From IMG/VR virus record IMGVR_UViG_3300005530_000004, positions 10,873 through 74,872 of that record: 64,000 nucleotides of DNA. One strand, 5' to 3'. A model generated the notes under the pieces. That model did not search any database. It was not told where the DNA came from and saw nothing but the letters and a program-made list of their open reading frames with translations. This stretch comes from a virus. Numbering within the stretch: the first letter of the stretch is position 1; the number at the start of each line of letters is the position of its first letter. The position numbers and the translations under genes were made by a program. Positions 2,788 to 39,089 of the stretch are shown here, piece after piece.

Positions 2788-3945
2788 ATGATTACAGCAA
2801 GTTATCAAAATACCCCAACTGCATTATCAGAGTTAGACTCTGATTTTGTTAAGTATTTTGGTATGCCTGCTTTATTAACTATTCCATGCAAAGGTCCAGA
2901 AAAGAAAGCGTATGATTTTAGTAGGAATAAATCGGGTAGAAATACTGGAACATTAAATGGTGGCGTTACCGTCGTGCCGGCGAGTGCGGGGATTTTCGGA
3001 GCGGGGTGGAAGTTAAATGGTACGAATCAGTATCTTTTAATGCCCGACATGAAGCTTACTTCCGCATGGGTCTCAATGACCATCGTGCCGACGACAGTGA
3101 CGGGCGACCTGCGCATCTTATCGCAAGCCAGCGGCGCAACGAATCAGGGTGGCGCGTTGGCAATCAACCAATCGAGCGGAGAACACGGATCGGTCTGGGT
3201 TTGGACGGGTGGTGCGATGCTGCGACTTTGCGCAGATGCGACTCTCGTTGCCGGCCAGCGGAATCATCTCGATTTCCTCTTTTTCGGGGGAACTTGCACG
3301 ATGTATTTCAACGGGCAGGTTCAAATGACTCAGACGAGCGGATTCGCTTTCAACGGCGTGCCATTGACGTTTTTCGGTAAATATGTGGGCAGCTTCGGAA
3401 ATACTTTCCCAGGGGTGGCGTACCAAGTTTCGCTTTTCAAAACGCAGCCGACAGCCGCCCAAGTATCTACATTATATAATTCATTAAAATATGGTAAACC
3501 ATTCAAATTGTTTGCTACACCTAGAATAAGAAGATTATATTCTTTTGGTACATCTAATATACCTTTAGCATTAACTGGAAAATCATTATCATATTCTTTT
3601 AGTGAATCAAGAATATCTACAGCAAGAAAGTTGTCTGCACAATCTGAATCTCAAAGTCTATTAAGTGCAAGACAAGCAATACTGCAAGGCTTATATTCAC
3701 AATCTATAGATCAATCAATAAATCATGCTTCGGAAAATATAGGTAAAGCTTTATCATCTAAAGCACTTGAATATTCTATTGGCCAGGGCAATACAAATGT
3801 TTTACGTAAGCTCCATGCTGAATCAACTTCTCAAACATCATTGATAGCAAGCTATGCAAGTACAAAATTTGAACTATTAAGTATGAGAAGATACTCTTCT
3901 CAATACTTCGTACAAAGTGGTTCAGCGGAAGATACAGGACAATAA
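2788..3945 (+). CDS. LamG/concanavalin-A-like lectin-fold virion protein with Ser-rich C-terminal repeats
   Basis: AYDFSRN..NTGTLNGG, LNGTNQYL, MYFNGQ, FPG..YQVSLF..PTAAQVSTLY match the LamG-like jellyroll pattern. Confidence 0.75.
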   Translation: MITASYQNTPTALSELDSDFVKYFGMPALLTIPCKGPEKKAYDFSRNKSGRNTGTLNGGVTVVPASAGIFGAGWKLNGTNQYLLMPDMKLTSAWVSMTIVPTTVTGDLRILSQASGATNQGGALAINQSSGEHGSVWVWTGGAMLRLCADATLVAGQRNHLDFLFFGGTCTMYFNGQVQMTQTSGFAFNGVPLTFFGKYVGSFGNTFPGVAYQVSLFKTQPTAAQVSTLYNSLKYGKPFKLFATPRIRRLYSFGTSNIPLALTGKSLSYSFSESRISTARKLSAQSESQSLLSARQAILQGLYSQSIDQSINHASENIGKALSSKALEYSIGQGNTNVLRKLHAESTSQTSLIASYASTKFELLSMRRYSSQYFVQSGSAEDTGQ

Positions 3946-4514
3946 TGTTAACAGAAGTTGTTGAACATCTTAGTAAAGAATATAATTGGGATGTTGAGGT
4001 ATACGAAGATGAAGAGTTTAGAGATATTATAGTAGATAGTATAGATTATACAGGTATTTATCAAGTATCTAATTATGGTAGAGTCTGGAGTATAAAAAGA
4101 CAGTCGTTTTTAAAAGAAGGTAGAAGTTCTAATGGATACTTACATGTAACATTATGCAAAAATAAAATACATAAAACTTATTCAATACATAAATTAGTTT
4201 TAACAGCTTTTAAAAGACCTAAAAAATGGTTTGAAGAATGTCGTCATTTAGATAGAGATAGACAAAACAATCATATAGATAATCTTGAGTGGGGTAGTAA
4301 TTGTGACAACTATAAAGATAGAATAAGGCATGGAACGGACAATAAAAGAAATGAAGACCACCATATGGCAATCTTGACAAATGAACAAGTAATAGAAATA
4401 AGGGATAAATATAAAACTGGAAAATATTCTCAAAGAGACTTAGCAAAAGAATACTCAGTTACACAAGTTAATATTTGGTATATTGTTAATTATATTACAT
4501 TTGAGGATATTTAA
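3945..4514 (+). CDS. NUMOD4-HNH homing endonuclease
   Basis: YQVSNYGRVWS (NUMOD4), IHKLVLTAF, CRHLDRDRQNNHIDNLEW (HNH), C-terminal HTH (SQRDLAKEYSV). Confidence 0.9.
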   Translation: MLTEVVEHLSKEYNWDVEVYEDEEFRDIIVDSIDYTGIYQVSNYGRVWSIKRQSFLKEGRSSNGYLHVTLCKNKIHKTYSIHKLVLTAFKRPKKWFEECRHLDRDRQNNHIDNLEWGSNCDNYKDRIRHGTDNKRNEDHHMAILTNEQVIEIRDKYKTGKYSQRDLAKEYSVTQVNIWYIVNYITFEDI

Positions 4515-5300
4515 GTGGCTAACATTCTAGTCGTTGGTTCTGATAATTTATTAACTATAGATAAATTGATGCAACCTAACAGTGATCCACCCAATTATAT
4601 AAATAATGCTACAATAATTTGGACATTAATAGATCAAAGTAATAATACTGTAGGAACCGGCAGTTATACATATGTAAATGGAAGCAACGGTGAATATCAA
4701 GCAGTAATTCCTGCATCATTAAGTACAACATTAGTTGCTAATAATACTTATACATTAAATCAAAATGTGACTGCAACAGGATTTGTTTCATTATTCAAAG
4801 ATACTTATCTTGCAAGAACCCCACAATCTGCGCAGTTTACTTACTGCGTAAGAAAAGATATAGAGAATATATTCGGCTCAGTAAATGTTAAAAAATGGGC
4901 GGATATTGATGCTGATGGAGACCCACAAAAGATAGATGCAAAAATAAATTGGGCGCTACAATTAAGTTATGATTATGTGAACTCTAAATTATCTGGTGGC
5001 CCATATGTAATACCATTAGCAGGTAAGTATCCCGTTATAATAACTTGCCAAGCAAAGCTTGCAGCAGTAGAAATATATGAAGCAAGGGGCTTGCAAAATT
5101 TTGATGAGCAAGGAAAACCTATTCATCAATTGCAAAACTCTAAATCTTGGGCAGATAATATATTGGCCCAAATAAGGGCTGGAATATTACGATTGCCAAA
5201 TGCTTTACCACAAGATATTGGCGGAACAATAGTACCACAAGCAGTTAGAATATCAAGATCAAGACTATCTGGATGTGGTTATCCGTTTATAAATTGGTAG
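4515..5300 (+). CDS. Mu gp36-like head-tail adaptor with N-terminal beta-sandwich extension
   Basis: YCVRKDIENIFG, YVNSKL..YVIPL, KLAAVEIY, LAQIRAGILRL resemble DUF1320/Mu gp36. Confidence 0.7.
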   Translation: MANILVVGSDNLLTIDKLMQPNSDPPNYINNATIIWTLIDQSNNTVGTGSYTYVNGSNGEYQAVIPASLSTTLVANNTYTLNQNVTATGFVSLFKDTYLARTPQSAQFTYCVRKDIENIFGSVNVKKWADIDADGDPQKIDAKINWALQLSYDYVNSKLSGGPYVIPLAGKYPVIITCQAKLAAVEIYEARGLQNFDEQGKPIHQLQNSKSWADNILAQIRAGILRLPNALPQDIGGTIVPQAVRISRSRLSGCGYPFINW

Positions 5301-5430: not shown

Positions 5431-7356
5431 ATGAGGAACAAACAATATCATGAAATAGATAAGATAGAACTTCATGGAACAAGAATAGCTGTTCGTACGA
5501 CAAGTAGAATAAGAGCGAAGTTAATAGAAGCATTTAAGCAACATAAGTTTGCTGACATATCCAATGATCTGTTCAATGATATATTTCTACCGTTAATGAC
5601 TGCAAGTCTGCTTGCAGACTTGCGTGGAAGAAAAAGAAGTTTTCTATTCGCGGATACATCATTTAATGCAGGTAAATCAGTATTACCAGAGCTACAACTA
5701 GCATTCGGCAAAAAGGCAAAAAAGACACTTAAGCGAGTAGTTAAATTACCTGTTAAAAAGATAATTAAGAAGGGTATTATAAATGTATCTGTTGAAAATA
5801 TACCAGAAGATGTAACAAGTACTTATAAGAAGGCTAAAAAAATATACAAAGGTGGTAAGAGCTTACATAAAAAAATAAAATCCACACCCATACAAGAAGT
5901 CGGCAAAAAAGCAAAAATAAAGCCAGTACCAGAACGTGTACCAGTAACAAAAAAGAATAAACGACAAAGATTTAAAGAAGTATTAATAGAAGAAAATGAA
6001 AGAGTTAAACAAGAAGTTAAGCAAAAGATAAAGCATGAAAAGAAGTATATCTATGATGAAATAATTCGGCATCTTCGAGTGTTATTAAAAGATGTAGCGG
6101 TAGAAACAGTTAAAGTTGTTAATTGGGAGGAAGTATTAGATAGATTAAATAATGATGAGAGAAATGTTAAAGATATAAAGAATATTTTTAACAGAAAGCA
6201 GGTTACCCGATCTACTGATAAAATAATAACTAAGCTAATAAATAAAGTAGAGAGAAAGATAAGAGATAAAAAAGATCGTGCAAAAGCAGAGATTAAAGAG
6301 AAGATAACTAAAGAGTCATTACGAGCAGGTAAAAAATATGCTGCTCAACCGATTAAAAAATCAATAGGTCAAAAAATATCTGAAAAGATATTTGGTCAAC
6401 CTAGAAGAAGTGGTTCTCATAGACAATATAGAAGTAGTTATTACTATATTGCCAAGACTTTACAAGAGCTAGAAAAAGGTCAACGTAGACGAAGACAATA
6501 CGAAACTGCTAAGCATACATTAAGTGCAATAGGTGGAATAGCTGATTTAATAGGTTTCTTATCTCAGTATAATATACAAGACTTATTTGTATTCTTAACT
6601 GAATTAGGTGGAGCAAAGTTTTTTCCTGAAACATATAAAATTGGTGGTGTAGTAAAAGCAGCTAATTATATAGGTGAAGTAGGAAAGACATTAGAATTTG
6701 TTACGGAAGATGATGAGTTTAATAAAGTAAAAGAATATGAAATTAAACGTGTTCTTCGTTTAATTCAAGAACTACAAACGATAAAGAAGTTATTTACTAA
6801 ATATCATCCGCCAGTTTTTAATATATTAAAGAATGCAAGTCAAAAAACAAATGATAATCTTCGACAAGTAGTAAATGATCTAATATTGCAAGGAACACCG
6901 ATAAAAGAGGGTAGTAAAATATTAGCTGAGGCATTTGCCGCTAATGGTTTATCTATCAAAGAACCTTTTAAAATAGAAACAATATTTAGAACGCAATCCG
7001 CTTTAGCATACTCTGCTGGAAGATGGCAAAGCGATCAACACCCTGCGATACAAGAAATATTATGGGGTTATAGATATGTAACAGTAGGGGATTCTCGTGT
7101 AAGACCAGCACATAGAATACTTGATGGTGTAACTTTACCTAAAGGCTCTGAATTTTGGCTATATTTTTGGCCACCAAATGGTTGGAATTGTAGATGTTCA
7201 GTAATAAGCTTGTTTGAAGAACCAGAAACAGGGATAGTTTTACCACCATCAGACTGGAAAGGACTTGCAGAGATAGACAAAGATTTTACATTTAATTCTG
7301 GTGTTTTGTTTATGGAATCTTCTGCACGTTTCGCTGGTTTACAGACTCAAGTATAA
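5431..7356 (+). CDS. MuF-family minor head protein with long Lys-rich insertion
   Basis: ETIFRTQSALAYSAGRW, YVTVGDSRVRPAH, PPNGWNCRCSV are Phage_Mu_F motifs. Confidence 0.9.
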   Translation: MRNKQYHEIDKIELHGTRIAVRTTSRIRAKLIEAFKQHKFADISNDLFNDIFLPLMTASLLADLRGRKRSFLFADTSFNAGKSVLPELQLAFGKKAKKTLKRVVKLPVKKIIKKGIINVSVENIPEDVTSTYKKAKKIYKGGKSLHKKIKSTPIQEVGKKAKIKPVPERVPVTKKNKRQRFKEVLIEENERVKQEVKQKIKHEKKYIYDEIIRHLRVLLKDVAVETVKVVNWEEVLDRLNNDERNVKDIKNIFNRKQVTRSTDKIITKLINKVERKIRDKKDRAKAEIKEKITKESLRAGKKYAAQPIKKSIGQKISEKIFGQPRRSGSHRQYRSSYYYIAKTLQELEKGQRRRRQYETAKHTLSAIGGIADLIGFLSQYNIQDLFVFLTELGGAKFFPETYKIGGVVKAANYIGEVGKTLEFVTEDDEFNKVKEYEIKRVLRLIQELQTIKKLFTKYHPPVFNILKNASQKTNDNLRQVVNDLILQGTPIKEGSKILAEAFAANGLSIKEPFKIETIFRTQSALAYSAGRWQSDQHPAIQEILWGYRYVTVGDSRVRPAHRILDGVTLPKGSEFWLYFWPPNGWNCRCSVISLFEEPETGIVLPPSDWKGLAEIDKDFTFNSGVLFMESSARFAGLQTQV

Positions 7357-7370
7357 GGTAATATGTTAAT

Positions 7371-8651
7371 ATGTACAATCCATTAGTAAACCCTATTGTA
7401 TATTGCTCTCCAAAGAGACAAGCTTTAAAATTATCTAATGGACTATATAAAATAGAGACAATTCCTGTAGGTGCATTTGTTAAAGATAATGCAAAAGCAG
7501 GCGATGAACATGAAAGGATACCATTTGAAGTAGATTTAAATACTTTAAAGCATTGGAAAAATACATTTAAAGCCATGATGTTTAATGGTATAGAAGTTCC
7601 TATGCCATTAAATCATACGGAAGACCCGGAAGCACGTCGCGCAACTGTTGTAGATTTTGAAATAGATAAAAACGAGAGAGGGGAAGATTCTTTATTCACT
7701 ATCTTTAAATTTAAAGATAAAGAAGCAGAAAAGTCTTTAAAAGATACTCGGGTAAGTGTATTTGTCCCACCTAAATTTGTAGATGGAAGAGATAATGAAT
7801 ATATTTATCCAATCCGTCATGTTGCGTTTACAGATTATCCAGTAATTCCTGGGTTATCTAAAATGCAACCTTTAGCTATTGCTGCAAGTTACGTAGAAAG
7901 TAAATCAGAAAGTAAATCAGAAAGTAAAAACGACAAGGAGAAAAAGAAAATGCCATTCCCTCCGAAAAAGAAAGATGGTGAAGGTAATGAGGAAAAAGAA
8001 TTAGAAGGAAAAGAAAAGAAAGTAGAAGGTGGAGAAGAAGAAACTGCAACAGTAACGATTGAAGATTTTCGAAATATTGCTGACAAGCTAGGATTAGAAG
8101 GCATTCCTGATAATAAACTAGTTGAAGCAATTAATCATGTTATTGATGCAATTTTAGAAGAGAGTGGAGATGATGAAGAAGATAATGAATTAGATAATGA
8201 ATTAGACGAGGAAGGTAAAAAGAAAGGAACTGGTCCAGTGGCACATAGAATTAAGCACGAAGAGGAACATTATCACGCACCTAATGGTGCAGCTAATCAG
8301 CCACCTATTGCTGCTGGATTTATTTCTTTAGGTCGAAAGCAAAGATTGACTGAAATTCAAGCTTTAGCAAAAGACGGGTATGTAACCCCCGCTACAGCTA
8401 AAAATTTAGTTGGTCAATTTTGTACTGATGATGCTTTACAATTGGCATTTTCAAAGGATGGTGATGTTCTTGATAATTTTGACAAGACTGTTGAATTATT
8501 AAAGACTAATGGAAAAGTTGTAAGCTTAGATAAGGAAAAGTCTCAAAATGACGCTTTAGAATTAAGCTACTCAGACGTTTTTAATAATGAAACGTCTAAT
8601 CCTTTAATGAAAGATGCTTCTCGTCGAGCTAAAGCTGCTGGTCAAGCTTAA
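7371..8651 (+). CDS. Mu I-like prohead protease/scaffold
   Basis: VPMPLNHT, RVSVFV, IRHVAFTDYPVIPGL; acidic/helical C-terminal half; sits between MuF and capsid genes. Confidence 0.8.
   Translation: MYNPLVNPIVYCSPKRQALKLSNGLYKIETIPVGAFVKDNAKAGDEHERIPFEVDLNTLKHWKNTFKAMMFNGIEVPMPLNHTEDPEARRATVVDFEIDKNERGEDSLFTIFKFKDKEAEKSLKDTRVSVFVPPKFVDGRDNEYIYPIRHVAFTDYPVIPGLSKMQPLAIAASYVESKSESKSESKNDKEKKKMPFPPKKKDGEGNEEKELEGKEKKVEGGEEETATVTIEDFRNIADKLGLEGIPDNKLVEAINHVIDAILEESGDDEEDNELDNELDEEGKKKGTGPVAHRIKHEEEHYHAPNGAANQPPIAAGFISLGRKQRLTEIQALAKDGYVTPATAKNLVGQFCTDDALQLAFSKDGDVLDNFDKTVELLKTNGKVVSLDKEKSQNDALELSYSDVFNNETSNPLMKDASRRAKAAGQA
7950..8651 (+). CDS. probable internally initiated scaffold protein (Mu gpZ-like)
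   Basis: In-frame ATG at 7950 (MPFPPKKK) with AAGGAG at 7935-7940. Confidence 0.55.
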   Translation: MPFPPKKKDGEGNEEKELEGKEKKVEGGEEETATVTIEDFRNIADKLGLEGIPDNKLVEAINHVIDAILEESGDDEEDNELDNELDEEGKKKGTGPVAHRIKHEEEHYHAPNGAANQPPIAAGFISLGRKQRLTEIQALAKDGYVTPATAKNLVGQFCTDDALQLAFSKDGDVLDNFDKTVELLKTNGKVVSLDKEKSQNDALELSYSDVFNNETSNPLMKDASRRAKAAGQA

Positions 8652-9285: not shown

Positions 9286-10728
9286 ATGGGTGCCATTCTT
9301 GACATTTTTCGTAAGGACGCTTTTAATGTAGTTAATTTAACTGCTGCAATAAATAAGCTTCCTTATAAACCAACTAGAATTACCGACATGGGTTTATTCC
9401 AAGAAAAAGGAATAAACACTACTATGGCGGCTGTTGAAGAACGAGATGGAAAGTTAGGGCTATTAACTTCTCGCGCTCGTGGCGTAATGACAGAAATTAA
9501 TACCATTGGTTTGCGAAAAGTTCGTGCGTTCCAAGTTCCTCATATTCCCATCAATGAATCTGTGCTTGCAGATCAAGTGCAAAATTTACGCGCATTTGGT
9601 TCTGCAAATCAAATGGAAACAGTTGCTACTGCAATTAATGAACGATTGCAAAGCATGAAAGATTGGATTGACACGACAAAAGAATATTATCGTGTTAGTT
9701 CTCTGCAAGGCAATTTGTTGGATGGGGATACTACTACTGTTCTTTTTAATTGGTTCAGTGAATTTGGACTTACTCAAACCAGTTATAATGTAGATTTTAC
9801 TTCGTTTAATTCTTTTACTGCACCTGGAGCATTAACTGCTGCCGATGGTGGTGGTAGCGGCTTATTATCTGCTGGTGCATATACTTATAAAGTAACTTTT
9901 GTTACTAGTGCTGGTGAAACTCAAGCTAGTGTTGCAAGTAACTCTATTACTTTAGCAGCTTCTCACAAAATGACTTTAACGGCAATTCCTGTTGGTCCCG
10001 CAGGGACTTTATATAGGAATCTTTATCGTACTACTGCTGGTGGTTCTAGCTATTTATTCTTGACACAAATTTCAGATAATACTACTGTTGGTTATACTGA
10101 TAATATTGCGGATGCAAGTTTGGGTAGCAATGTTGCACCGACTGTTACTAATATTCCTAGCGCTCGTGATCCATATACTTCTGTAATGGACATGAAAAAG
10201 GATGTAGCAACGAAAATTATTCGAGCAATCGAAGATGCTTTGGGCGTTACAATGTATCGTAGCATTCGAGTTCTTTGTGGAAATGCTTTCTGGGATAATT
10301 TTATTAATCATCCAACCGTTATTCATTCTTATGAACGATGGTTGCAAGCTGGTGATACTGGAACTGGTGGAAGCTTTTTCCGAAATCAACAGCGTCAACA
10401 ATTAAATCGTCAGGGAGATTCTGTTGCTCCTGGTGGTTTTGAATTTGCTGGAATGTATTGGGAAAATTATCGTGGCCATATTGGAACAAATTTCTTTGTT
10501 CCTGATAAGGGTGCAATTGCATTTCCTGAAGGCTGTCCAGATTTATTTATTGAACATATTGCTCCTGCACCGTTTATTGAAACGGTCAATACTATTGGTT
10601 TACCGTATTATGCAAAACAAGAACTTATGCGATTTGGTTTAGGTATTGAATTGCACGCAGAGGCTAATCCTTTGCCTATGTGTACTCGCCCCGGTGCTTT
10701 AATTAAATTAACTCAAACTGCACCGTAA
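9286..10728 (+). CDS. major capsid protein (lambda gpE-like) with ~125-aa inserted beta-sandwich
   Basis: DAFNVVNLTAAINKLPYKP, FQVPHIP, APAPFIETVNTIGLPYYAK, EANPLPMCTRP are Phage_cap_E motifs. Confidence 0.9.
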   Translation: MGAILDIFRKDAFNVVNLTAAINKLPYKPTRITDMGLFQEKGINTTMAAVEERDGKLGLLTSRARGVMTEINTIGLRKVRAFQVPHIPINESVLADQVQNLRAFGSANQMETVATAINERLQSMKDWIDTTKEYYRVSSLQGNLLDGDTTTVLFNWFSEFGLTQTSYNVDFTSFNSFTAPGALTAADGGGSGLLSAGAYTYKVTFVTSAGETQASVASNSITLAASHKMTLTAIPVGPAGTLYRNLYRTTAGGSSYLFLTQISDNTTVGYTDNIADASLGSNVAPTVTNIPSARDPYTSVMDMKKDVATKIIRAIEDALGVTMYRSIRVLCGNAFWDNFINHPTVIHSYERWLQAGDTGTGGSFFRNQQRQQLNRQGDSVAPGGFEFAGMYWENYRGHIGTNFFVPDKGAIAFPEGCPDLFIEHIAPAPFIETVNTIGLPYYAKQELMRFGLGIELHAEANPLPMCTRPGALIKLTQTAP

Positions 10729-10781
10729 TATTTATCTAAGGTTTATTTTGACGGAATGTTTATAAGCAGGCGAGGCGATGG

Positions 10782-10855
10782 GTCGGATATGCGGGTATAT
10801 TAATATAAATTAGTTGGGTCCGATTTATATTAATCCCTGCCCGCATATTCTTTTA
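10782..10855 (+). terminator. long hairpin plus U-tract after capsid gene
   Basis: GGATATGCGGG..ATTAATATAAATT / GATTTATATTAAT..CCCGCATATTC followed by TTTT. Confidence 0.55.
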
Positions 10856-10873
10856 TATAAAGAAAAACTAAAA

Positions 10874-11482
10874 ATGCCAAATAAGACTCCTGAGTTTGAA
10901 TTAAAATTATCAGAAGCATTGCATTTTGATAATAAAGATAAAATGCGAAGAACAATAGTAAAATCTATAAATAACATACGAACAAAAAATGGACTGGCTG
11001 AATTATCTCTATCATTTTTTGAAGAAAGCAAGCATCCTAGAGATCATGGAAAATTTGCTTCAAAAGGTGGAAGTGGCGGTAGTGGAAGTGAAGAAAATAA
11101 TGGTGATGAGGCAACATTTAAAGGTGAAAGTTATAATCGTAAAGAAGTACGTAATAAAATAAAAGAAGGTGATGCTAAAGAAAGATTAAGTAAAATTTTA
11201 ACAGGGGCTAAGTGGGCTGGAATAATTGGTGGTGGCGCTGCTGCTGTTGCTACTGGACACCCAATTATTGCTGCCGCTTTATTTGGATATGGAGCAACTA
11301 AAATTGCTTCTAAAATGGCTGCTGCTGCAACTTATGCAACTGCAAAATATGGTACTAAAACTGTAATAGGTGCTAATATTGCTGCCACAAAAATAACGAC
11401 TGCGCCTAGTAGATTTATTTTAAGAAAAGCTGGACAAGGTATATCTGGTATTGTAGATGCAGTTAGTTCTGAATTTAAATAA
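10874..11482 (+). CDS. putative capsid-internal protein with KHPRD tag and hydrophobic Gly/Ala segment
   Basis: ATG 10874 preferred over the TTG inside the hairpin; ELSLSFFEESKHPRDHGKF. Confidence 0.55.
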   Translation: MPNKTPEFELKLSEALHFDNKDKMRRTIVKSINNIRTKNGLAELSLSFFEESKHPRDHGKFASKGGSGGSGSEENNGDEATFKGESYNRKEVRNKIKEGDAKERLSKILTGAKWAGIIGGGAAAVATGHPIIAAALFGYGATKIASKMAAAATYATAKYGTKTVIGANIAATKITTAPSRFILRKAGQGISGIVDAVSSEFK

Positions 11483-11492
11483 GGATATAACA

Positions 11493-12731
11493 ATGATAGA
11501 TAAACGAATATTGTCCAGAAAAAGATTAACAGAGATATCTTTATCATTTAATAATGATATATCTATCCTTGCTGCTTTTGAAGAAAGTAAACATCCTAGA
11601 GATCATGGAAAATTCACATTTAAAAATGGTGGAAAATCCAGTGGTTCTGGCGGTTCTGGAAGCGTTATAAGTTCTGGAAAAAGTAAAAAGAAAAGAAGTG
11701 TCAGAGAAGTTTCTCAACAAGTTTCTCAACAAGTTTCTCAACCTGTCCAGCAACCCAAACAGCAACCTAAGCAACAACAATCTAAGCACGAATTTAAGGA
11801 GTGGGAAAGCCAAATTCGTGCGGTTAGAAATGAAACAATAGCTCAGCAAGCTAGAGAAGGTGAATATCAACCCGAACATGCTGCAAAATCTTCTTTTGCA
11901 GAACATGCTGCAAAAGAAGCTGGAATAATTTATGGTTTAGGTGCAATAAAAAATGTAGGTAAAAAATTCTTTGGTGGAGCTAATAAGACTAAAGAAATAG
12001 TTACTGCGGAAATTGTTCCAGAATCTGCTGAAACAAGAAAAAAGGCTGTTGCTGCTGCAAAAGCTGCTGCTGGACCTAAATTAAAAAAAGCAAGGAAGCT
12101 TACTAATGCTACAGCTAGAAGTGCAGGAATTAAAAATGCTCAAAAAGCTGCTAATGCTGCATATAAAGCTACAATTAAAGATTTAGCAGGAAAAGTTGGT
12201 GCATCTGCTACAGTAGAAGAAGGTGCTACATTAGCTTCAAAAGCTGTTGGTGGTAGTAGATTAAAAAAGGCTGCTAGTGCAATATTTGGAATTGGAACAT
12301 TAATTCCAAGATTAAGTGTTCCTCATTTAGCTATAGCTACAGCTGTTGCTGCTGCTGGATATTATGGATATAAAAAATATCAACAAAAGCAACGACAGCA
12401 TGAAATAATGCAACATGAACGAGAATTAATGAAGGAAGAATCTGAGTCAGCATATAATTCTGATGATGATAGACAATTTAATAAAGAAGTTAGAGAGAAA
12501 ACAGCTAGAGAAGTTGCTAGACAAGCAAGTGTTTATGCCGCCAAGCAATATTCTCAGCAACAAGTTAGTTATCAAAAACAAGCTATTGATGAAGAATTAA
12601 GTACAGGAAGAGTTCAAAGAAAAATGCGTAGATCGGCACGTATTACTGCTTATGCTGCTGCTAAAGAATACGCAAGACAAGAACGTACTCAAGCATATAA
12701 AACTAGAGAGTCAGATAGTTTTCTATACTAA
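11493..12731 (+). CDS. putative capsid-internal/ejected protein with KHPRD tag
   Basis: AAGGA RBS; EISLSF..AAFEESKHPRDHGKF; Ala/Lys-rich body with TM-like LAIATAVAAAGYYGY. Confidence 0.55.
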   Translation: MIDKRILSRKRLTEISLSFNNDISILAAFEESKHPRDHGKFTFKNGGKSSGSGGSGSVISSGKSKKKRSVREVSQQVSQQVSQPVQQPKQQPKQQQSKHEFKEWESQIRAVRNETIAQQAREGEYQPEHAAKSSFAEHAAKEAGIIYGLGAIKNVGKKFFGGANKTKEIVTAEIVPESAETRKKAVAAAKAAAGPKLKKARKLTNATARSAGIKNAQKAANAAYKATIKDLAGKVGASATVEEGATLASKAVGGSRLKKAASAIFGIGTLIPRLSVPHLAIATAVAAAGYYGYKKYQQKQRQHEIMQHERELMKEESESAYNSDDDRQFNKEVREKTAREVARQASVYAAKQYSQQQVSYQKQAIDEELSTGRVQRKMRRSARITAYAAAKEYARQERTQAYKTRESDSFLY

Positions 12732-12734
12732 TAT

Positions 12735-13286
12735 ATGATAACAGTCACAGTAAAAATAGACCTTAAAAAACTTAAAAAATTTCAAGGTCTATTAAAAAGA
12801 GATTTAAGAGCTGGTGGACAAACTTCTGGTGGTTCACCAATTAATAATGCTTTTAAGCAATGGGGTGTTCGTGTAAGAAGTTATTTACAACAAAGATTTG
12901 TATTATATTCTCGTGGTGGTGGAGATTGGGCACCATTAAAACCATCTACAATTAGAGCTAGAAGAGGTTCCAAAAAAGGTAAACGTAACTCAGTAGCAAT
13001 ATTAAGAGATACTGGAACTTTATATAATGCACTTTCACCAGAATTTACTGGAAAACCTGGTGCGATAGAAGAAAAAATACCTTATGGAGTAAGAATAGGG
13101 TATGGTGGTCCAGGAAGATACACTAATAAATATGGTGGAGTAGCTACCATTGCAGATATTGCTAGTTTTCATCAAGTGGGTGCTGGGTATTTACCAAAAC
13201 GTGAAATTATTGTATTACCAGACGATCATACTTTAGAGTTAATGTCAGAGGATATGTTAAGAGCTTTAGATAAGATGAATAGATAA
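12735..13286 (+). CDS. Mu gpG-like virion morphogenesis/tail completion protein
   Basis: WAPLKPSTIRARR, ILRDTGTL, ASFHQVG..LPKREII. Confidence 0.8.
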   Translation: MITVTVKIDLKKLKKFQGLLKRDLRAGGQTSGGSPINNAFKQWGVRVRSYLQQRFVLYSRGGGDWAPLKPSTIRARRGSKKGKRNSVAILRDTGTLYNALSPEFTGKPGAIEEKIPYGVRIGYGGPGRYTNKYGGVATIADIASFHQVGAGYLPKREIIVLPDDHTLELMSEDMLRALDKMNR

Positions 13287-13843
13287 TGCCACCTACTCCT
13301 GCAAATAACGACGGCTTTATTGTAAATCCATTTACTTTGGTATTTGATGCTCTTTGGAGCATATTAGAAAATTCTCCACAATTTACGGCTGATGTAAAAG
13401 CCGGTAATAGAATACATTTAAATAGGACTAATGATCCTAATGCTTTAAAACCAGAAATACAAGATAGTGATCTTCCAGAAGTAATATTAACATCTGCTGG
13501 TTCAGGAACAATAGGATTATTTGTAACATCATCTACAAGTAAAATAATAAAACGATATCAGTTTTTAATTTCTACTGGAGATCAGAGAGTTCAGAATTAC
13601 TTAAATCAGGTTCAGTTCGACATATTTGCAGCATTCACTGGTTGGCAAGATTTATTGGGGCAATTAATTTGGCCAGTAAATTCCGGTAGAAATTTTGTAA
13701 AGCGTGGAGATTTAGTAGATTGTGAAGAGGGCTTATCTAATTCTGAAAGAAATCGTGGAATAGTTGGCTGGTCATCAATTTGGTCCGCAGAAGTCGAAAT
13801 GCACTTTGCAACAAGTGATTTAAAGGCATATCGTGGTTATTAA
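13286..13843 (+). CDS. probable tail terminator
   Basis: Position between tail completion and tail tube genes; size; SDLPEVIL. Confidence 0.5.
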   Translation: MPPTPANNDGFIVNPFTLVFDALWSILENSPQFTADVKAGNRIHLNRTNDPNALKPEIQDSDLPEVILTSAGSGTIGLFVTSSTSKIIKRYQFLISTGDQRVQNYLNQVQFDIFAAFTGWQDLLGQLIWPVNSGRNFVKRGDLVDCEEGLSNSERNRGIVGWSSIWSAEVEMHFATSDLKAYRGY

Positions 13844-13847
13844 ATAT

Positions 13848-14243
13848 ATGGATATACCTCTATTTGAACATGAAATTTCTTTGGTCTTATCATTTGATGA
13901 AAACAAACACCCAAGAGATAAAGAAGGTAAGTTTAAGACATATTATCACGGATCACCTAATCCAAATATTGAAGTATTAAAAGCTGGTAGCTATGTAACT
14001 AAGCATTTATATATTGCTAAGATAATGGGTATACATAATAAAAGAAACAAAAAAGTTTGGAATGATAAAGATTTAACGAAGCCATATAAATTTGGTAGTA
14101 AAATAAAATTTAAAAGTAAAAATAAATTTTCTGGTAAGCCAATTATTTATAAATTAGAAGTTAAAGATGAAGATATTGATTTTTTAAACAATCCTTTTGA
14201 GCATACAATTAAAGTACCAATTAAAGTTATTAAATTAATCTAA
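13848..14243 (+). CDS. ADP-ribosyltransferase-like protein with KHPRD tag
   Basis: LVLSFDENKHPRDKEGKF then YYHGS..SYVTK..IA..IYKLEV..FEH, the H-G-S / Y-x-T / terminal E pattern of Arr/PARP-like ARTs. Confidence 0.55.
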   Translation: MDIPLFEHEISLVLSFDENKHPRDKEGKFKTYYHGSPNPNIEVLKAGSYVTKHLYIAKIMGIHNKRNKKVWNDKDLTKPYKFGSKIKFKSKNKFSGKPIIYKLEVKDEDIDFLNNPFEHTIKVPIKVIKLI

Positions 14244-14265
14244 GGTAATAGGAGATTGAAAATCT

Positions 14266-15165
14266 ATGGGATATCATTCTGGAAAGTTCGGTGTTATCAA
14301 CAATGTTCCTGCAATGATTAGCTGGAGCATTGAAGATGATTCTGATACAAAAGAAGCTGTTAATTCACAAACTTATTCAATGCCAATGCAGCTTCCCGGT
14401 GTAAATCATTGGTCGGGAAGTATTGAACAAAACGGTGCAAATCCGGTTGCAGGATTAATGCCTGGAGCCATATTTGCATTTCAAGGATATACTGCACCAG
14501 ATAATGATACTGCTTCTGGAACTGGGAGCATATATTCTGGAAATATAATGGTCGAAAGAATGACGTTAGCACTTAATTGGGAAACAGGTGACGTAGAAAA
14601 GATTTCTTATGAATTCCAAGGTGCATTAGGTTTAACTTTTGCTACTGGACAAGCAGCATTAACAGATGTTACTACGCCAAATTATTACGGAACAAAACAA
14701 TTACCTACACCGCAAGTTGCAGTAGCAAATGCAGCTGGAAGTTGGATTCCGGGATCTTTTGTTGCTTGGCCAAATGTTTCGCAATTATCTATATCTATTT
14801 CAAATGAAGTTCAATCAGTAGTCAATTCATCTACTGGTGGAAATACAGATAAAAAAGCTGGTCCTTGGAAAATGGAAGTTACTGCGACTGAGCAAGAAAT
14901 ATTGCGAGCATTATTTGAAAAAGATAATATTCTTCATTTAAAGGTGTTCACTAAGCCGGATTCCTCCCAATTTTGGGACATTAAATGGCTGCACGTAAAG
15001 AATTTTACCGGCATTCAAATTAGCCGTGAAAGCGGAGCTATTATTACTAGAAATGTTAGCTTACCTTTCCAAGCTTACGATAATGAAGCTACTCCAATTT
15101 TAGGTGCAATAACTTTACCTGGCGCCGGTAGTGATTGGTGGCCATCTGTTGCTGGTGGTGCGTAA
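14266..15165 (+). CDS. major tail tube protein
   Basis: GYHSGKFG, SWSIE, HWSGSIE, ISYEFQG; precedes chaperone and TMP; GGAGA RBS. Confidence 0.75.
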   Translation: MGYHSGKFGVINNVPAMISWSIEDDSDTKEAVNSQTYSMPMQLPGVNHWSGSIEQNGANPVAGLMPGAIFAFQGYTAPDNDTASGTGSIYSGNIMVERMTLALNWETGDVEKISYEFQGALGLTFATGQAALTDVTTPNYYGTKQLPTPQVAVANAAGSWIPGSFVAWPNVSQLSISISNEVQSVVNSSTGGNTDKKAGPWKMEVTATEQEILRALFEKDNILHLKVFTKPDSSQFWDIKWLHVKNFTGIQISRESGAIITRNVSLPFQAYDNEATPILGAITLPGAGSDWWPSVAGGA

Positions 15166-24731: not shown

Positions 24732-24742
24732 GATGTATTCTT

Positions 24743-24816
24743 GGAGCCGTAACTCAATTGGTTAGAGTAGGAAACTCATAATTTCTTAGTTGCAGGTTCG
24801 AGTCCTGCCGGCTCTA
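24743..24816 (+). tRNA. tRNA with CAT anticodon (Ile2-lysidine or elongator Met)
   Basis: GGAGCCG/CGGCTCT acceptor, GGAAA-CTCATAA-TTTCT anticodon arm, GCAGG-TTCGAGT-CCTGC T arm; no encoded CCA. Confidence 0.9.
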
Positions 24817-24845
24817 TTTAACGTGTTAACCAGAAAAGCAGAGAA

Positions 24846-27679: not shown

Positions 27680-27759
27680 AGATTTTCTAGGCCAATGTTA
27701 AGCTATTTTAATGCTAGCGCACATATAAAAATATCTTAACCTCTTGAGCCTAGAAATCT
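27680..27759 (+). ncRNA. structured RNA copy 2, abutting tRNA-Leu
   Basis: Same core, different but complementary flanking stems. Confidence 0.55.
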
Positions 27760-27845
27760 GCCGGTGTGGTGGAATTGGAATACACGACAGACTTAAAATC
27801 TGTTTGAAGGTAACTTCAATATCGGTTCGAGTCCGATCATCGGCA
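27760..27845 (+). tRNA. tRNA-Leu(TAA)
   Basis: GCCGGTG/CATCGGC-A acceptor, ACAGA-CTTAAAA-TCTGT anticodon arm, long variable arm TGAAG-GTAA-CTTCA, ATCGG-TTCGAGT-CCGAT. Confidence 0.93.
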
Positions 27846-27913
27846 TTTGATTACTTGTCGCAAATTAGATTACTTGTCGCCAATCAGTAGACTAGCAATG
27901 AAACAAATGTATA

Positions 27914-34983: not shown

Positions 34984-35235
34984 ATAATGTATTTTTAAGT
35001 TTTTGGGGAAAGCTAGGGAATTAGCCGATATATGTACACTATATGTACATTTGTACACTATTTTACTGTACATTTGTCTATCTATCAAGAAAATAATATT
35101 TGGAAAATAAGAAAAATTTCCTGCTAAACAAAGTCAATTTTCTCGGGATTTTCAACAAAATATATTTGACAACGCAAGTATCATACCGGGAATGGTATTT
35201 GCGTCGCGGGCGCGGCCGCGCGAAGTAACACTGTC

Positions 35236-35329
35236 TCGGCGGATCGTCGGGCGACCGACGATCCGCCGACGATCCGCCGACGATCCGCCGACGATTCGGC
35301 CCGCTGCGCTCGATTAAATCGAGCGCAGC
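35236..35329 (+). repeat. GC-rich hairpin with GCGA tetraloop, 4x 11-bp tandem repeat, and second hairpin
   Basis: TCGGCGGATCGTCGG-GCGA-CCGACGATCCGCCGA; CCGACGATCCG x4 (35255-35298, last with one mismatch); GCTGCGCTCGAT-TAA-ATCGAGCGCAGC. Confidence 0.85.
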
Positions 35330-35368
35330 ACTTGCAAAAGATTCCTCAAAATAATCGTGGCAAGAGTA

Positions 35369-35397
35369 TTGACTTGCCGAATGAATCATGGAATACT
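35369..35397 (+). promoter_or_regulatory. sigma70-like early promoter
   Basis: TTGACT-N17-AATACT; GGCAAG..CTTGCC dyad over the -35; another TTGACA at about 35166. Confidence 0.5.
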
Positions 35398-35416
35398 TCA
35401 CCTAGTTGATTGATTG

Positions 35417-35430
35417 TGCTCTTTGAAAAC
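35417..35430 (+). promoter_or_regulatory. rrn-type boxA antitermination element
   Basis: TGCTCTTTGAAAAC about 20 nt downstream of the -10; matches the GYTCTTT(G/A)A boxA consensus. Confidence 0.65.
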
Positions 35431-35503
35431 TTGGTTAGCGCGGCAACGGTTCGACGGAGCTAGCTCCGTCCCTGCCTAATCAAGCTTGCAAGCCGCGTAC
35501 ACA

Positions 35504-35890
35504 ACCACTAGGCGTTTTATTGTGCGGCGTCGTGTTCAACAGGGCAACAGGGCAATGGTCGCCAAACAACACGACAACCACAATAAAACGGAGAGAACAA
35601 AGTGAACAAATACTTTGTAATTTGGACCTACGTTGCGAATTACGGAAACTTGGAAGTCTTCGCCGATAGTGCGGAAGAAGCTTCCAAGATCGTGCTTAGC
35701 TCTTTCAGCACTGATTTCTCGGAACGCGGAACGGTCTATGTTTTTTCCGAGCCGGAGTACATTTACAACGGCCGCGAAGAAACGAAAAAGCGGAAGCAAC
35801 AGAAAATCCAACAGGATATTGATAACAGACTCAGCCGATAAGCAACACGACAACACGACATGGACGCCGCACAATAAAACGCCTAGTGGT
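35504..35890. repeat. 28-bp perfect inverted repeat enclosing CDS 35602-35841
   Basis: ACCACTAGGCGTTTTATTGTGCGGCGTC (35504-35531) / GACGCCGCACAATAAAACGCCTAGTGGT (35863-35890). Confidence 0.95.
35602..35841 (+). CDS. small early hypothetical protein
   Basis: GGAGAG RBS, GTG start, GC-richer codons. Confidence 0.7.
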   Translation: MNKYFVIWTYVANYGNLEVFADSAEEASKIVLSSFSTDFSERGTVYVFSEPEYIYNGREETKKRKQQKIQQDIDNRLSR

Positions 35891-35896
35891 AACAAG

Positions 35897-36261
35897 TAGC
35901 TCACCAGTGATTTAATCCTGCCCTGTTGATTGTGTATCAAACGCCAAACAACACGACAACACGACAACACGAAGGATACAATAAAATGACATTGGCTAAA
36001 AAGCGTTTCGACGACAATGAAATCGTGAAAGAACACGAGCTGCCCTATCGACCATTCCGTGTCTCAGCCTCTTTGGAGAGTTTTTTTCTGCGGCTTGATG
36101 CCGCACAAATGACGCGCGAGAAATTAGAGTCTATCCAGACTCTAATCTGGCAAAAGCGCAAGGTAGAACACGATCTATGTTCCGCCGTGCAAAATGTTTT
36201 GAGGGGGCAATCTCGATAACAGGGCAACATAACAGGGCAGGATTAAATCACTGATGAGCTA
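35897..36261. repeat. 32-bp near-perfect inverted repeat enclosing CDS 35986-36219
   Basis: TAGCTCACCAGTGATTTAATCCTGCCCTGTTG (35897-35928) / TAACAGGGCAGGATTAAATCACTGATGAGCTA (36230-36261). Confidence 0.95.
35986..36219 (+). CDS. small early hypothetical protein
   Basis: AAGGA RBS, ACAATAAA immediately before ATG. Confidence 0.65.
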   Translation: MTLAKKRFDDNEIVKEHELPYRPFRVSASLESFFLRLDAAQMTREKLESIQTLIWQKRKVEHDLCSAVQNVLRGQSR

Positions 36262-36347
36262 GCAATCGTGCAACTAATTCGGTAAATTCTCGCGCCGAAT
36301 AAACTAACAATAAATGCGAGAAAACACTTTGTTTTGGAGACTGTACA

Positions 36348-37037
36348 GTGTCAACCACCCACAAGAATGCCCCCGCCAATCGTGACTCCGCGAAAGTTTC
36401 TGATCGGCCAGCCGAACAGAAAACCGAAACGGCCACGACGACGGAAAAGAGGCGTGGTCGTCCGGCCGGAAACGGCGAGAAAAAGCAAACCGGGAAAATC
36501 AAATATCCCGGAGTTGCGAACGGGGAAAAACTCTCCGTCGTGCCGACGGATTTCGACCCCGCCAAACACAAGCGATTATCTGCGGACAATTTCACTTCAC
36601 CCGCGCTTTTTGACGCGCACAAGGCGAAGCATTCCAAGCCGCGAAATTTCCACCCATTGCTTTTGAATGAGGCGGGCGAACCGGAAAACAAATTGTCGGA
36701 ATTCCCTTCTGATGTTTCGGTCGAAGTGAGTTACGATTATTCGCTTAACGGCGAAAAGATCGTCGCTTTCCGCCCGCGTCATTTTTCGGATCGTCGTGCG
36801 CTTGCAAAAGCTCTGGTTCCCGCGCTGCAAAAGCAAATCGCCGCGCTGGAAAAAATCAGCACGATGACGGACGATCAAATCGAAAAACTCGGCCGCAAGG
36901 AAGAGTTGAAGCGCGGCATCGAGAAGAAAATCAAGGAAGCGACCGGATCGACAATCAGCATGGAGATGCTCGAAAAGATGCTCGCAACTCTTCCGCCGGA
37001 GATGCAAGAAAAGTATGCTGCGGCGACGGCGGGCTAG
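36348..37037 (+). CDS. GC-rich early protein with AT-hook-like KRRGRP
   Basis: GGAGA RBS, GTG start, terminator downstream. Confidence 0.7.
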   Translation: MSTTHKNAPANRDSAKVSDRPAEQKTETATTTEKRRGRPAGNGEKKQTGKIKYPGVANGEKLSVVPTDFDPAKHKRLSADNFTSPALFDAHKAKHSKPRNFHPLLLNEAGEPENKLSEFPSDVSVEVSYDYSLNGEKIVAFRPRHFSDRRALAKALVPALQKQIAALEKISTMTDDQIEKLGRKEELKRGIEKKIKEATGSTISMEMLEKMLATLPPEMQEKYAAATAG

Positions 37038-37076
37038 TTGCTTGCGAATTACTTGTTTGGCGACAAGTTTTCTCGA

Positions 37077-37110
37077 CCCCTACGAAACAATTGTTTCGTA
37101 GGGGTTTTTT
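37077..37110 (+). terminator. Rho-independent terminator
   Basis: CCCCTACGAAAC-AATT-GTTTCGTAGGGG-TTTTTT. Confidence 0.85.
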
Positions 37111-37130
37111 CGTGCGCTGAAATAATACTT

Positions 37131-37236
37131 GCGTCGTCCAGGGAGCGAGCCAGCGTCGTCCAGGGAGCGAGCCAGCGTCGTCCAGGGAGCGAGCCAGCGT
37201 CGTCCAGGGAGCGAGCCAGCGTCGTCCAGGGAGCGA
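37131..37236. repeat. 22-bp tandem repeat x4.8 (iteron-like)
   Basis: GCGTCGTCCAGGGAGCGAGCCA x4 plus 18 bp, no spacers. Confidence 0.95.
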
Positions 37237-37601
37237 ATCCTAACAGCAGCTTGACGCGCTGCCGCGCTGTAGTTACACTGGCCGCACCGGGGCAATAGGC
37301 GCACCATGCGTCAAATAAAAATATTTATTTTCTCATTTAGCGGCGAGAAAAATAGATACAGTGAACAATAAAATGCCGCTTTTTCCACTGCACACTTCTA
37401 CTCCTCTTTTTTGGAGAAAATATAATCAAGCAATAATCCGACAATCCGACAATCCGACAATTCGACAATTATTTTTTTCTCTGAACAATAAAACATGCTG
37501 TAACATTGGAGTTGCTGCAAGCCGATCGGATCGACCAAAATAAATCATTCACGCAAATAATTCCTACGTAGGAATTAAAAATTGAAGGGATACAAAAGAC
37601 A

Positions 37602-38048
37602 ATGGAAATTACAGTAGAAAAAATTGCCAATTTACTCTTAAATCCAGAAAATCGTGATAAGATGCGAGAAACGAAAAATAGGGCTTGTGTAGAAATAGAA
37701 GAAGCCGCTAAGCAAATAGCTTTCCAGCGTAAAAAAATCGACGATGGTTTGATGCGACTCGCAGCCGCGAAAACGGACAAGGAAAATCCTAAGCATATCG
37801 AATCATATATAAAAAGCTTCAAGGAACGTCTTGAACGTGCTAAAAAAGAAATTGCAGAATGTCAAAAGCAAATTGAGATTCTGCAAGCTAGACTACCATC
37901 GGAAGCGCGGGCCGCTAAGGTAGAAAGTATCGAGCAAGAGCTAAAGCAATATGAAAGCAATGTTAATGCGCTGATTTCGCAAAAGGGAGAATGGACTAGG
38001 TTGCGAGATTTAATTTCGCAAGCCGAAGAATTAAGAAAATTGTCTTGA
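37602..38048 (+). CDS. coiled-coil hypothetical protein
   Basis: AAGGGA RBS, heptad pattern. Confidence 0.65.
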   Translation: MEITVEKIANLLLNPENRDKMRETKNRACVEIEEAAKQIAFQRKKIDDGLMRLAAAKTDKENPKHIESYIKSFKERLERAKKEIAECQKQIEILQARLPSEARAAKVESIEQELKQYESNVNALISQKGEWTRLRDLISQAEELRKLS

Positions 38049-38201
38049 ATATCTTGAAAACAGAAACAAAAACAAAATTCGAGAACCCGACATAATTCCG
38101 TACAGTAGTGTACAAAATTGGTACGGAATTTTGCCGCGTTTTCTGTCGAGTGGTATCGACGGCGCAGCACAATAAAACTTGTTTTGAAGAAAAGGAAGAA
38201 G

Positions 38202-38369
38202 ATGACATACAATCAATTACTAGATTGCATTGAAGCAATGACATTAGAGCAAAGAGAGTGTGATGTTACAGTAGAAATAGACGATGAATGCTATCCAGCT
38301 ACACTATATATTTCTGACGATAACCACGACTCTTTAGAAAAGGATCACCCTGTTTTGAAAGCAATGTAA
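38202..38369 (+). CDS. small acidic hypothetical protein
   Basis: AAGGA RBS before ATG 38202 (MTYNQLLD). Confidence 0.6.
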   Translation: MTYNQLLDCIEAMTLEQRECDVTVEIDDECYPATLYISDDNHDSLEKDHPVLKAM

Positions 38370-38371
38370 AT

Positions 38372-38424
38372 AACAGCCATGTTTCCGCCGCAACATAAAT
38401 GTTGCGGCGGTGGCGTAGGTTGTT
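38372..38424 (+). ncRNA. intergenic hairpin element copy A
   Basis: AACAGCCATGTTT-CCG[stem]CGG-TGGCGTAGGTTGTT. Confidence 0.75.
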
Positions 38425-39047: not shown

Positions 39048-39089
39048 TCTAGTTTCTGACACAATAAATTGAAGAAGGAGAGAAAGAAA

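Follow-up and report, generated by a model that had tools for sequence, protein, structure and literature searches.

Three otherwise dissimilar proteins encoded in the late operon of an uncultured soil phage carry the same short N-terminal tag, and on balance we lean towards reading this tag as an address or processing label for cargo that sits inside the head and is injected together with the DNA. The tag is specific to no single phage: it is a cross-phylum motif present in 4,460 protein clusters, with the consensus [WF][DE]E.KHPRD..GKF, after which a Gly/Ser linker usually follows. The DNA analysed here (the window) is a stretch of 64,000 nucleotides (nt), which corresponds to bases 10873-74872 of the 74,872-base-pair (bp) IMG/VR contig IMGVR_UViG_3300005530_000004. 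Since the contig has a 100-bp terminal repeat, it represents a complete phage genome. Coordinates are window positions and the features listed below are on the + strand.

Six-frame scans of the window and of the whole 74,872-bp genome revealed the pattern HPR-x(2-3)-GKF exactly three times, always on the + strand, in frame and near the N-terminus of an open reading frame (ORF). The HPR positions are 11033 in ORF A (...AELSLSFFEESKHPRDHGKF), 11592 in ORF B (...TEISLSFNNDISILAAFEESKHPRDHGKF) and 13908 in ORF C (MDIPLFEHEISLVLSFDENKHPRDKEGKF). The three ORFs and their tags, the latter defined by six-frame scan and alignment, are as follows:

10874..11482, + strand: ORF A, 202 residues; 42-residue leader, ELSLSF, tag FEESKHPRDHGKF, Gly/Ser linker, Lys/Ala/Gly-rich body
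11000..11056, + strand: tag of ORF A; ELSLSF and core FEESKHPRD-H-GKF
11493..12731, + strand: ORF B, 412 residues; 13-residue leader, EISLSF, NNDISILAA, tag FEESKHPRDHGKF, Gly/Ser linker, Q-rich repeat, charged Ala-rich body
11532..11615, + strand: tag of ORF B; EISLSF, 9-residue insert and core FEESKHPRD-H-GKF
13848..14243, + strand: ORF C, 131 residues; 8-residue leader, EISLVLSF, canonical tag DENKHPRDKEGKF, no linker, Lys-rich body of ~100 residues
13872..13934, + strand: tag of ORF C; EISLVLSF and core (F)DENKHPRDKEGKF, canonical spacing

The codon pattern for KHPRD has 3 matches in this DNA against 0.03 expected, and none of 100 shuffles reached 3. An earlier sequence-only reading of the window had proposed that three proteins share a tag, and this is confirmed, the tag being close to the N-terminus in all three ORFs, which belong to the late operon. 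The starts which that reading had chosen (10874, 11493 and 13848) are plausible, with an AAGGA Shine-Dalgarno sequence 7 nt before 11493 and with 13848 placed 4 nt after the upstream stop. It had also noted that the tags of A and B are nearly identical at the DNA level; indeed, they differ by 2 mismatches in 39 nt (TTTTGAAGAAAG[C/T]AA[G/A]CATCCTAGAGATCATGGAAAATT). The cores of both, HPRD-H-GKF, are one residue short of the HPRD-xx-GKF consensus, and such shortening is rare elsewhere (KHPREKGKF is an example). The few nucleotide differences and the common shortening of the core together indicate that the tags of A and B are paralogous. The core of C, KHPRDKEGKF, fits K-H-P-R-D, two residues, G-K-F exactly. 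At positions -5, -4 and -3 from the His an aromatic residue, an acidic residue and Glu are found in all three proteins, namely F-E-E in A, F-E-E in B and F-D-E in C. The His is residue 54 of 202 in A, 34 of 412 in B and 21 of 131 in C. In each protein the tag is thus N-terminal to the module, with a GGSGGSGS-type linker in A and B and none in C.

Before the core, A, B and C have another element in common, E[IL]SL(VL)SF. The sequence-only reading had treated this element and the tag as a single LxLSF-tag block; the element is indeed present in all three, whereas in B the 9 inserted residues part LSLSF from the tag. We also considered E[IL]SLSF as a sliding-clamp-binding motif (QLxLF-like) and dropped the idea, the pre-tag element being different in every phage lineage. 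All three ORFs were part of the tag alignment used, and phmmer joined A and C to tagged proteins via the tag region. A tblastn search of phages with the soil phage's own tag returned noise only. When C or the tag region of B was the query in word-indexed protein searches, each matched only itself.

The consensus was defined from 110 non-redundant instances, of which 108 have W or F at -5, 80 have D or E at -4 and 100 have E at -3. A degenerate DNA pattern for KHPRDxxGKF matched more than 114 IMG/VR contigs among the matches listed, and among these the in-frame context was always [WF][DE]E.KHPRD..GKF plus a Gly/Ser run; looser variants of the pattern found several tag copies per locus. The 4,460 clusters mentioned above were found with a profile of 113 instances, at E<=0.001, among 1.84 billion representatives of clusters made at 50% identity. 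E<=1e-10 is reached by 487 of them because they have several tag copies each, up to 19 in one protein of 7,334 residues. In 596 gigabases of prokaryotic genomes the strict pattern gave 69 matches in 68 stretches, where ~17 matches are expected by chance, and the full [WFY]xE signature is present in 48 of the 69. These matches are mostly prophage-like and come from Clostridia, Flavobacteriales, Alphaproteobacteria, Verrucomicrobia, Melainabacteria and others. Tagged genes also occur in cultured phages of Pseudomonas syringae, Xanthomonas, Burkholderia and Gordonia, annotated as hypothetical or as portal; examples are Pseudomonas phage Orimi01, with the order portal, tag, module, and Burkholderia phages of the phiE131 and phiE058 type. 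Gene 7 of Gordonia phage Zany (E=7) has only the degenerate IPRDKNGKF and was excluded from the count.

Tag anatomy was derived from the 150 best proteins, in 147 of which the pattern found the tag. The distance from one tag to the next has a median of 277 residues (interquartile range 204-460). At least 40 residues follow the last tag in all 147 proteins, and in 56 of them the first tag is within 60 residues of the N-terminus. It follows from residues always being present after the last tag, together with these N-terminal first tags, that the tag belongs to the module downstream of it. Exceptions are rare; in IMG/VR, 22 residues or fewer follow the tag in 3 of 122 instances. In most small tagged proteins the tag begins 1-5 residues after Met, so that the cleavable leader suggested by the sequence-only reading is not a general property. 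In 26 proteins with at least four tags, copies of the same protein are more similar to each other than to copies of other proteins at positions -12 to -6 (identity 0.37 vs 0.12 at -7) and at the variable positions of the core. More specifically, residues -12 to -6 are conserved within a phage and not between phages. Beyond -13 and +12 the identity is at background, and the modules between tags are mostly unrelated. These limits delineate a discrete unit of ~24 residues, in which a lineage-specific part precedes the universal core and a flexible linker follows it.

The AlphaFold2 (AF2) model of the tag, calculated from the 113-sequence alignment, has a predicted local distance difference test score (pLDDT) of 79 over its whole length and of 88 for the core. 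The core is confidently modelled as a tight, compact turn in which the R of HPR and the F of GKF are bridged. None of the Pfam families extends over the tag and no PDB chain has the motif (a profile search of PDB gave cyclin-Y as a chance match, E=2.1), and a literature search for the tag strings returned nothing relevant. A sequence-conserved, cross-phylum module label of this kind appears to be undescribed in Pfam, PDB and the searched literature; packaged injected effectors and capsid targeting peptides are already known as concepts.

Searching with the tag showed which domains are attached to it. According to Pfam scans, the commonest domain upstream of the tag is Phage_portal_3, followed by Phage_portal, Phage_portal_2, Portal_Mu, Phage_Mu_F, DUF2213 and Peptidase_S78. 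Downstream of the tag are ADP-ribosyltransferases, NUDIX, topoisomerase IB, Cupin, LPD3/LPD13, ddrB-ParB and PI3/4-kinase-like domains. Small proteins in which Met is directly followed by the tag include PBECR1/3 RNases, Zeta-toxin kinases, ADP-ribosyltransferases, MuF_C, Peptidase_M23, GH108 lysozyme and glutamine deamidase, and a Mu-like protease is found in one small N-terminally tagged protein. About half of the small tagged proteins have no known domain, as is the case for A, B and C. In other phages, interchangeable effector modules are thus found behind the tag in fusions to portal, MuF and prohead-protease domains, and to this extent the sequence-only reading is supported in part. These fusions strongly indicate, by comparison of sequences, that tagged modules are located inside the head. 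Where a tagged gene stands alone, its immediate upstream neighbours include portals of the SPP1 and HK97 types, gp7/MuF proteins and terminases. A clear example of a polyprotein is encoded by IMG/VR contig L008 (955-5016): its 1,354 residues have six tags and six mutually unrelated modules of 131-359 residues, and the stretch [LIV]W[VI][AIV]D[AV]E recurs ahead of 5 of the 6 tags.

The bodies of A, B and C differ, as had been claimed; BLASTP of A against B aligns the tag region only. None of the three matched a family in Pfam, PHROG or NCBIfam, with B giving only sub-threshold matches to pilin-like transmembrane helices, and no relatives of B were found in IMG/VR. The description of two of the bodies as Gly/Ala-rich suits A (14% Ala, 11% Gly) and is less suitable for B (15% Ala, 7% Gly). 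Both proteins are Lys/Ala-rich and contain a single hydrophobic Gly/Ala segment, at residues ~108-141 in A and ~263-289 in B. These segments are compatible with envelope-active ejection proteins. C had been taken for an enzyme, and this was not upheld: it has no family match at E<=0.1 in the three databases, and none to an ADP-ribosyltransferase (H-Y-E type) profile. A faint PARP-like hint for C comes from one Atlas cluster at 0.84, 16% of whose members have PARP, and from a YHGS motif. The AF2 model of C made without an alignment has a pLDDT of 45 and was unusable for fold search.

Near-identical DNA is present in rhizosphere and soil metagenome runs of several studies, and a 2022 soil study contains a strain of ~96% identity, which retains the tag of B. 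At 11690-11720, B has a Q-rich repeat, VSQQVSQQVSQPVQQPKQQPKQQ, to which the related strain adds one 12-nt unit (insertion behind 11705); the number of Q-rich repeats in B therefore varies between strains. Read mapping revealed no joints and no cassette replacements in the related strain, with uncovered parts and runs of small share left out of account. In one metatranscriptome library there are contigs for the capsid gene, for a portion of ORF 13286-13843, for the 5' end of C with the tag, and for the tube gene.

From the fusions and the position of the tag we infer packaging, a binding partner, cleavage and ejection in the following way. A, B and C would be head cargo with an N-terminal label of ~24 residues, consisting of the phage-specific E[IL]SL(VL)SF, the universal core and, in A and B, a Gly/Ser tether. 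The universal core would be bound by a conserved component of the assembling procapsid interior, for which the assemblin-fold protease/scaffold core encoded by ORF 7371-8651 is the preferred candidate, and this recognition would draw tagged proteins into the head. The maturation protease would then trim the leader at the phage-specific element just upstream of the core. In the fused polyproteins of other phages a cut at the same site would free the modules, each of them starting with a tag. If the core docks onto a conserved part of the procapsid, which may be the protease, it could both recruit free cargo and position a fusion junction for cleavage. Finally, the cargo would be ejected with the DNA, and A and B, with one hydrophobic Gly/Ala helix each, would act at the host envelope. 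Two head genes of the soil phage are important for this proposal:

5431..7356, + strand: MuF-family minor head protein, Phage_Mu_F domain at residues 477-592 (domain matches)
7371..8651, + strand: putative Mu gpI-type prohead protease (residues 1-~185) with an acidic scaffold-like C-terminal part (ESM Atlas; position between MuF and capsid)

In ESM Atlas, the features of the first 185 residues of ORF 7371-8651 score 0.93-0.94 to Mu-like_Pro clusters (19 of 30 matches), and the predicted structure of this part has template modelling scores of 0.57-0.67 to Mu-like_Pro, S78 and S77 clusters. The ORF has no match in Pfam (PF10123 included), PHROG or NCBIfam, and hhalign found no similarity between it and a DUF2213 alignment from the loci. 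It is probably the prohead protease/scaffold, the protease assignment being taken solely from the Atlas predictions. The soil phage would accordingly have a head module of Mu type, with Portal_Mu, MuF and likely a Mu-like protease.

Head proteases of T4-type and of giant phages cut after Glu, and head-protease sites such as LxE are known. In the giant phage SPN3US, N-terminal propeptides of head and ejection proteins are removed by the prohead protease (gp245) after Glu in A-X-E (PMC10052503). In the soil phage, the residues before the pre-tag element are LAE|L in A, LTE|I in B and EHE|I in C, and similar elements are LPE|LQLAF in MuF (ELQLAF at 5689) and ALE|LSYS near the C-terminus of ORF 7371-8651. 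The sites LAE|L, LTE|I and LPE|L resemble those of the SPN3US propeptides, although in the soil phage cleavage is suggested by the sequence only, and the SPN3US propeptides have no conserved tag in common. E[IL]SL..SF may be, on a post hoc reading, a cut site of the Mu-type head protease of the phage. Note that a lineage-specific stretch before a universal core is what would be expected if the maturation protease of each phage cuts just upstream of the tag.

Several observations weigh against the view that the tag addresses or processes head cargo. The core of A and B is shortened. The putative cut site was proposed post hoc, C has EHE and not LxE, and the MuF match is off at two positions. 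Neither A nor B nor C has a recognizable effector domain in the family searches described above. Contigs of the RNA library miss A and B, and they possibly reflect DNA carry-over. The tag is retained in portal fusions, where targeting alone would make it dispensable, so the tag probably does more than import. Moreover, it occurs with at least five portal Pfam families, also beside SPP1-type portal/gp7 genes, where a head protease is possibly absent; with so many portal families, a single conserved phage partner is not obvious.

If the tag were purely a processing signal, read by the prohead protease or by a peptidase embedded in polyvalent proteins, incorporation into the head would depend on the fusion, the leader or the cargo body. 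We consider this unlikely. It would explain why giant proteins have the tag at each junction between modules (up to 19 times), why fusions to portal, MuF and protease domains keep it although they need no addressing, and why a lineage-specific stretch lies directly upstream of it; proteolytic processing of packaged polyvalent proteins has also been discussed by Iyer et al. (PMC5512222). However, in about a third of all instances the tag follows the start Met of a small single-module protein by 1-10 residues, and processing there would release nothing. The near-invariant core of 14 residues far exceeds what known head-protease sites need (AXE, LxE), and the tag is also found beside SPP1-type head genes.

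It is still less probable that the tag acts after injection, as a short linear motif which engages a universal bacterial factor for refolding, localisation or activation in the host. No known bacterial peptide-binding motif fits the tag, no PDB chain has it, and it is strongly enriched in viruses and associated with head genes, not with free toxins. A tblastn search of 72,556 plasmids with a consensus-like tag gave no match, which for such a short query is weak evidence, though conjugative polyvalent proteins have the same post-transfer needs. A host factor would nevertheless account for conservation of the tag across phages of Firmicutes, Proteobacteria, Bacteroidota, Actinobacteria, Verrucomicrobia, Melainabacteria and CPR (candidate phyla radiation), while the head proteins are unrecognizably diverged, and for the presence of the tag on every module, even in fusions. 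That A, B and C are ordinary structural or assembly proteins (head-completion, tape-measure-associated or chaperone-like) with a duplicated N-terminus and with nothing delivered agrees with their location among head-tail joining genes, with their lack of effector domains and with the paralogy of the A and B tags, and yet it is very improbable, since the canonical tag of C differs and one local duplication cannot explain all three, thousands of other phage proteins carry this tag on genuine toxin and enzyme modules, and phages with related capsid genes are without tagged genes.

A label for co-injected head cargo, the reading which we prefer, has its closest functional parallel in T4. The capsid targeting sequence (CTS) of T4 IPII/IPIII is a short N-terminal peptide that directs green fluorescent protein into the T4 core (Mullaney and Black 1996; PMC9958956). 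It is present on otherwise unrelated proteins of one phage, as the tag is on A, B and C; it is sufficient to load foreign proteins, is linked to prohead-protease processing, and its cargo is injected with the DNA. The two sequences we take to be unrelated. The CTS has ~10 residues, is limited to T4-like phages and is removed by gp21, whereas the tag is cross-phylum, occurs across head types and recurs inside polyproteins. The analogy with the T4 targeting sequence drawn by the sequence-only reading is thus reasonable as a functional likeness; it fails in that a cut, where plausible, would lie upstream and leave the tag on the mature module. Encapsulin cargo-loading peptides have a Gly-rich flexible tether and bind a known pocket of the HK97-fold shell protein. 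They resemble the tag in being short conserved peptides on diverse cargo enzymes, with a flexible tether, and differ from it in their C-terminal position and in sequence. The pre-toxin motifs VENN of CdiA and DPxGL of Rhs mark the boundary for exchange of toxin cassettes, and the Rhs motif is also a cleavage site. Like the tag they are conserved short boundary marks, but the sequence differs and delivery is by a secretion system, compared with a capsid for the tag.

Effectors of polyvalent proteins and those fused to portal or MuF have been predicted to be packaged and injected (Iyer, Burroughs, Anand, de Souza and Aravind 2017, PMC5512222), and a large polyvalent protein has been detected in phi24B virions by proteomics (bioRxiv 10.64898/2026.04.10.717836). 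Polyvalent proteins have the same domains as tagged proteins (ADP-ribosyltransferases, PBECR, NUDIX, Zeta, Top1B, LPD, ddrB-ParB) and the same portal and MuF anchors, and the tag is their junction element. The text of Iyer et al. does not contain "HPR", and the junction tag is apparently not described there. A, B and C share with polyvalent proteins that they are encoded with head and packaging genes, amid the genes for TerL, Portal_Mu, MuF, capsid, neck and tape measure. Unlike polyvalent proteins, which have two or more effector domains, they are stand-alone single modules of 131-412 residues without a recognizable effector domain. MuF polymorphic toxins of temperate phages have variable C-terminal toxin modules and are predicted to be packaged and injected by Jamet et al. 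(2017, PMC5576092), whose main text, by word search, and domain-architecture section mention no motif or junction element. Tagged proteins similarly combine variable modules with a conserved head-protein domain in front and are encoded in the packaging module. In the soil phage, by contrast, MuF has no extension and the tagged proteins are separate genes.

Turning to the genome itself, we found no cultured relative of the soil phage. The head part of the late operon contains, in order, TerL, Portal_Mu, inserted genes, MuF, ORF 7371-8651, a small ORF and the major capsid protein; after the capsid gene come ORF A, ORF B, a tail-completion/Neck1-like gene, ORF 13286-13843, ORF C, a probable tail tube and the tape measure. 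The remaining listed features of this region are:

9286..10728, + strand: major capsid protein, Phage_cap_E family, with an inserted domain at residues ~167-310 (domain and family matches)
12735..13286, + strand: tail-completion/Neck1-like protein between B and C (phrog_222, phrog_26; weak Phage_tail_S match)

That the tagged genes interrupt an otherwise conserved gene order, as the sequence-only reading had stated, could be checked only weakly. In 80 loci with a related capsid gene (40-49% identity), none has a tagged gene within 8 kilobases, but the other genes are too diverged and no other recognizable gene is common to these loci. The capsid protein is ~150 residues longer than its relatives of ~330 residues, and the extra part, which matches PHROG families named esterase/lipase and internal virion protein, is probably an inserted, surface-exposed domain. 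Between portal and MuF (2788-5300) there are three extra genes, encoding a Laminin_G_3/ConA-like lectin-fold protein, a NUMOD4-HNH homing endonuclease and a Mu gp36-like protein. The capsid gene and ORF A are separated by a gap that contains a long AT-rich inverted repeat (10790-10844), with perfect 12-nt arms at 10799-10810 and 10823-10834 and flanks GCGGG...CCCGC. It may be a transcriptional attenuator downstream of the highly expressed capsid gene, although the terminator scan did not call it; the promoter and terminator scan of 10650-14350 gave no significant signals.

Elsewhere in the window, the phage encodes tRNA-Met(CAT) at 24742-24817 and tRNA-Leu(TAA) at 27759-27846. The region 35000-38400 has a GC content of up to 0.47, compared with ~0.33 elsewhere, and is without a convincing long ORF. 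Several short arrays of perfect tandem repeats are present in it (22 bp x 4.8 at 37131-37236, 11 bp x 3.7 at 35255-35295 and two of 8-bp units) and no Rfam family match was obtained for it; the region may represent inserted foreign DNA, an origin or a non-coding element of some other kind. At 39169-39500, a 15-bp unit, GTGCAAATTTGTCTG, is present in ~22 copies with 82% match and overlaps ORF 39069-39848, and this array is either iteron-like or part of a repeat protein.

Selection of head cargo in tailed phages is, to our knowledge, understood in detail for very few phages, for example T4 and P1. A broader proposal, which is possible but which we regard as doubtful, is that tailed phages use the 14-residue core as a universal and portable signal for capsid loading and processing, read in all host phyla and head types by a conserved procapsid fold such as the assemblin-type protease. 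If this is true, the core would be the phage counterpart of the encapsulin cargo-loading peptides, any tagged protein would be loaded for co-injection, and the tag would index thousands of injected effectors that are as yet unknown. A recognizable label would allow the injected effectors of uncultured phages to be read from sequence, in 4,460 clusters of which many are without a known domain, among them proteins of membrane-active appearance such as A and B, and it would mark the module divisions of polyvalent polyproteins. A further use might be as a short, portable peptide with which foreign proteins are loaded into capsids. For the soil phage the prediction is that three hypothetical genes of the head-tail region would encode delivered cargo and not structural parts.

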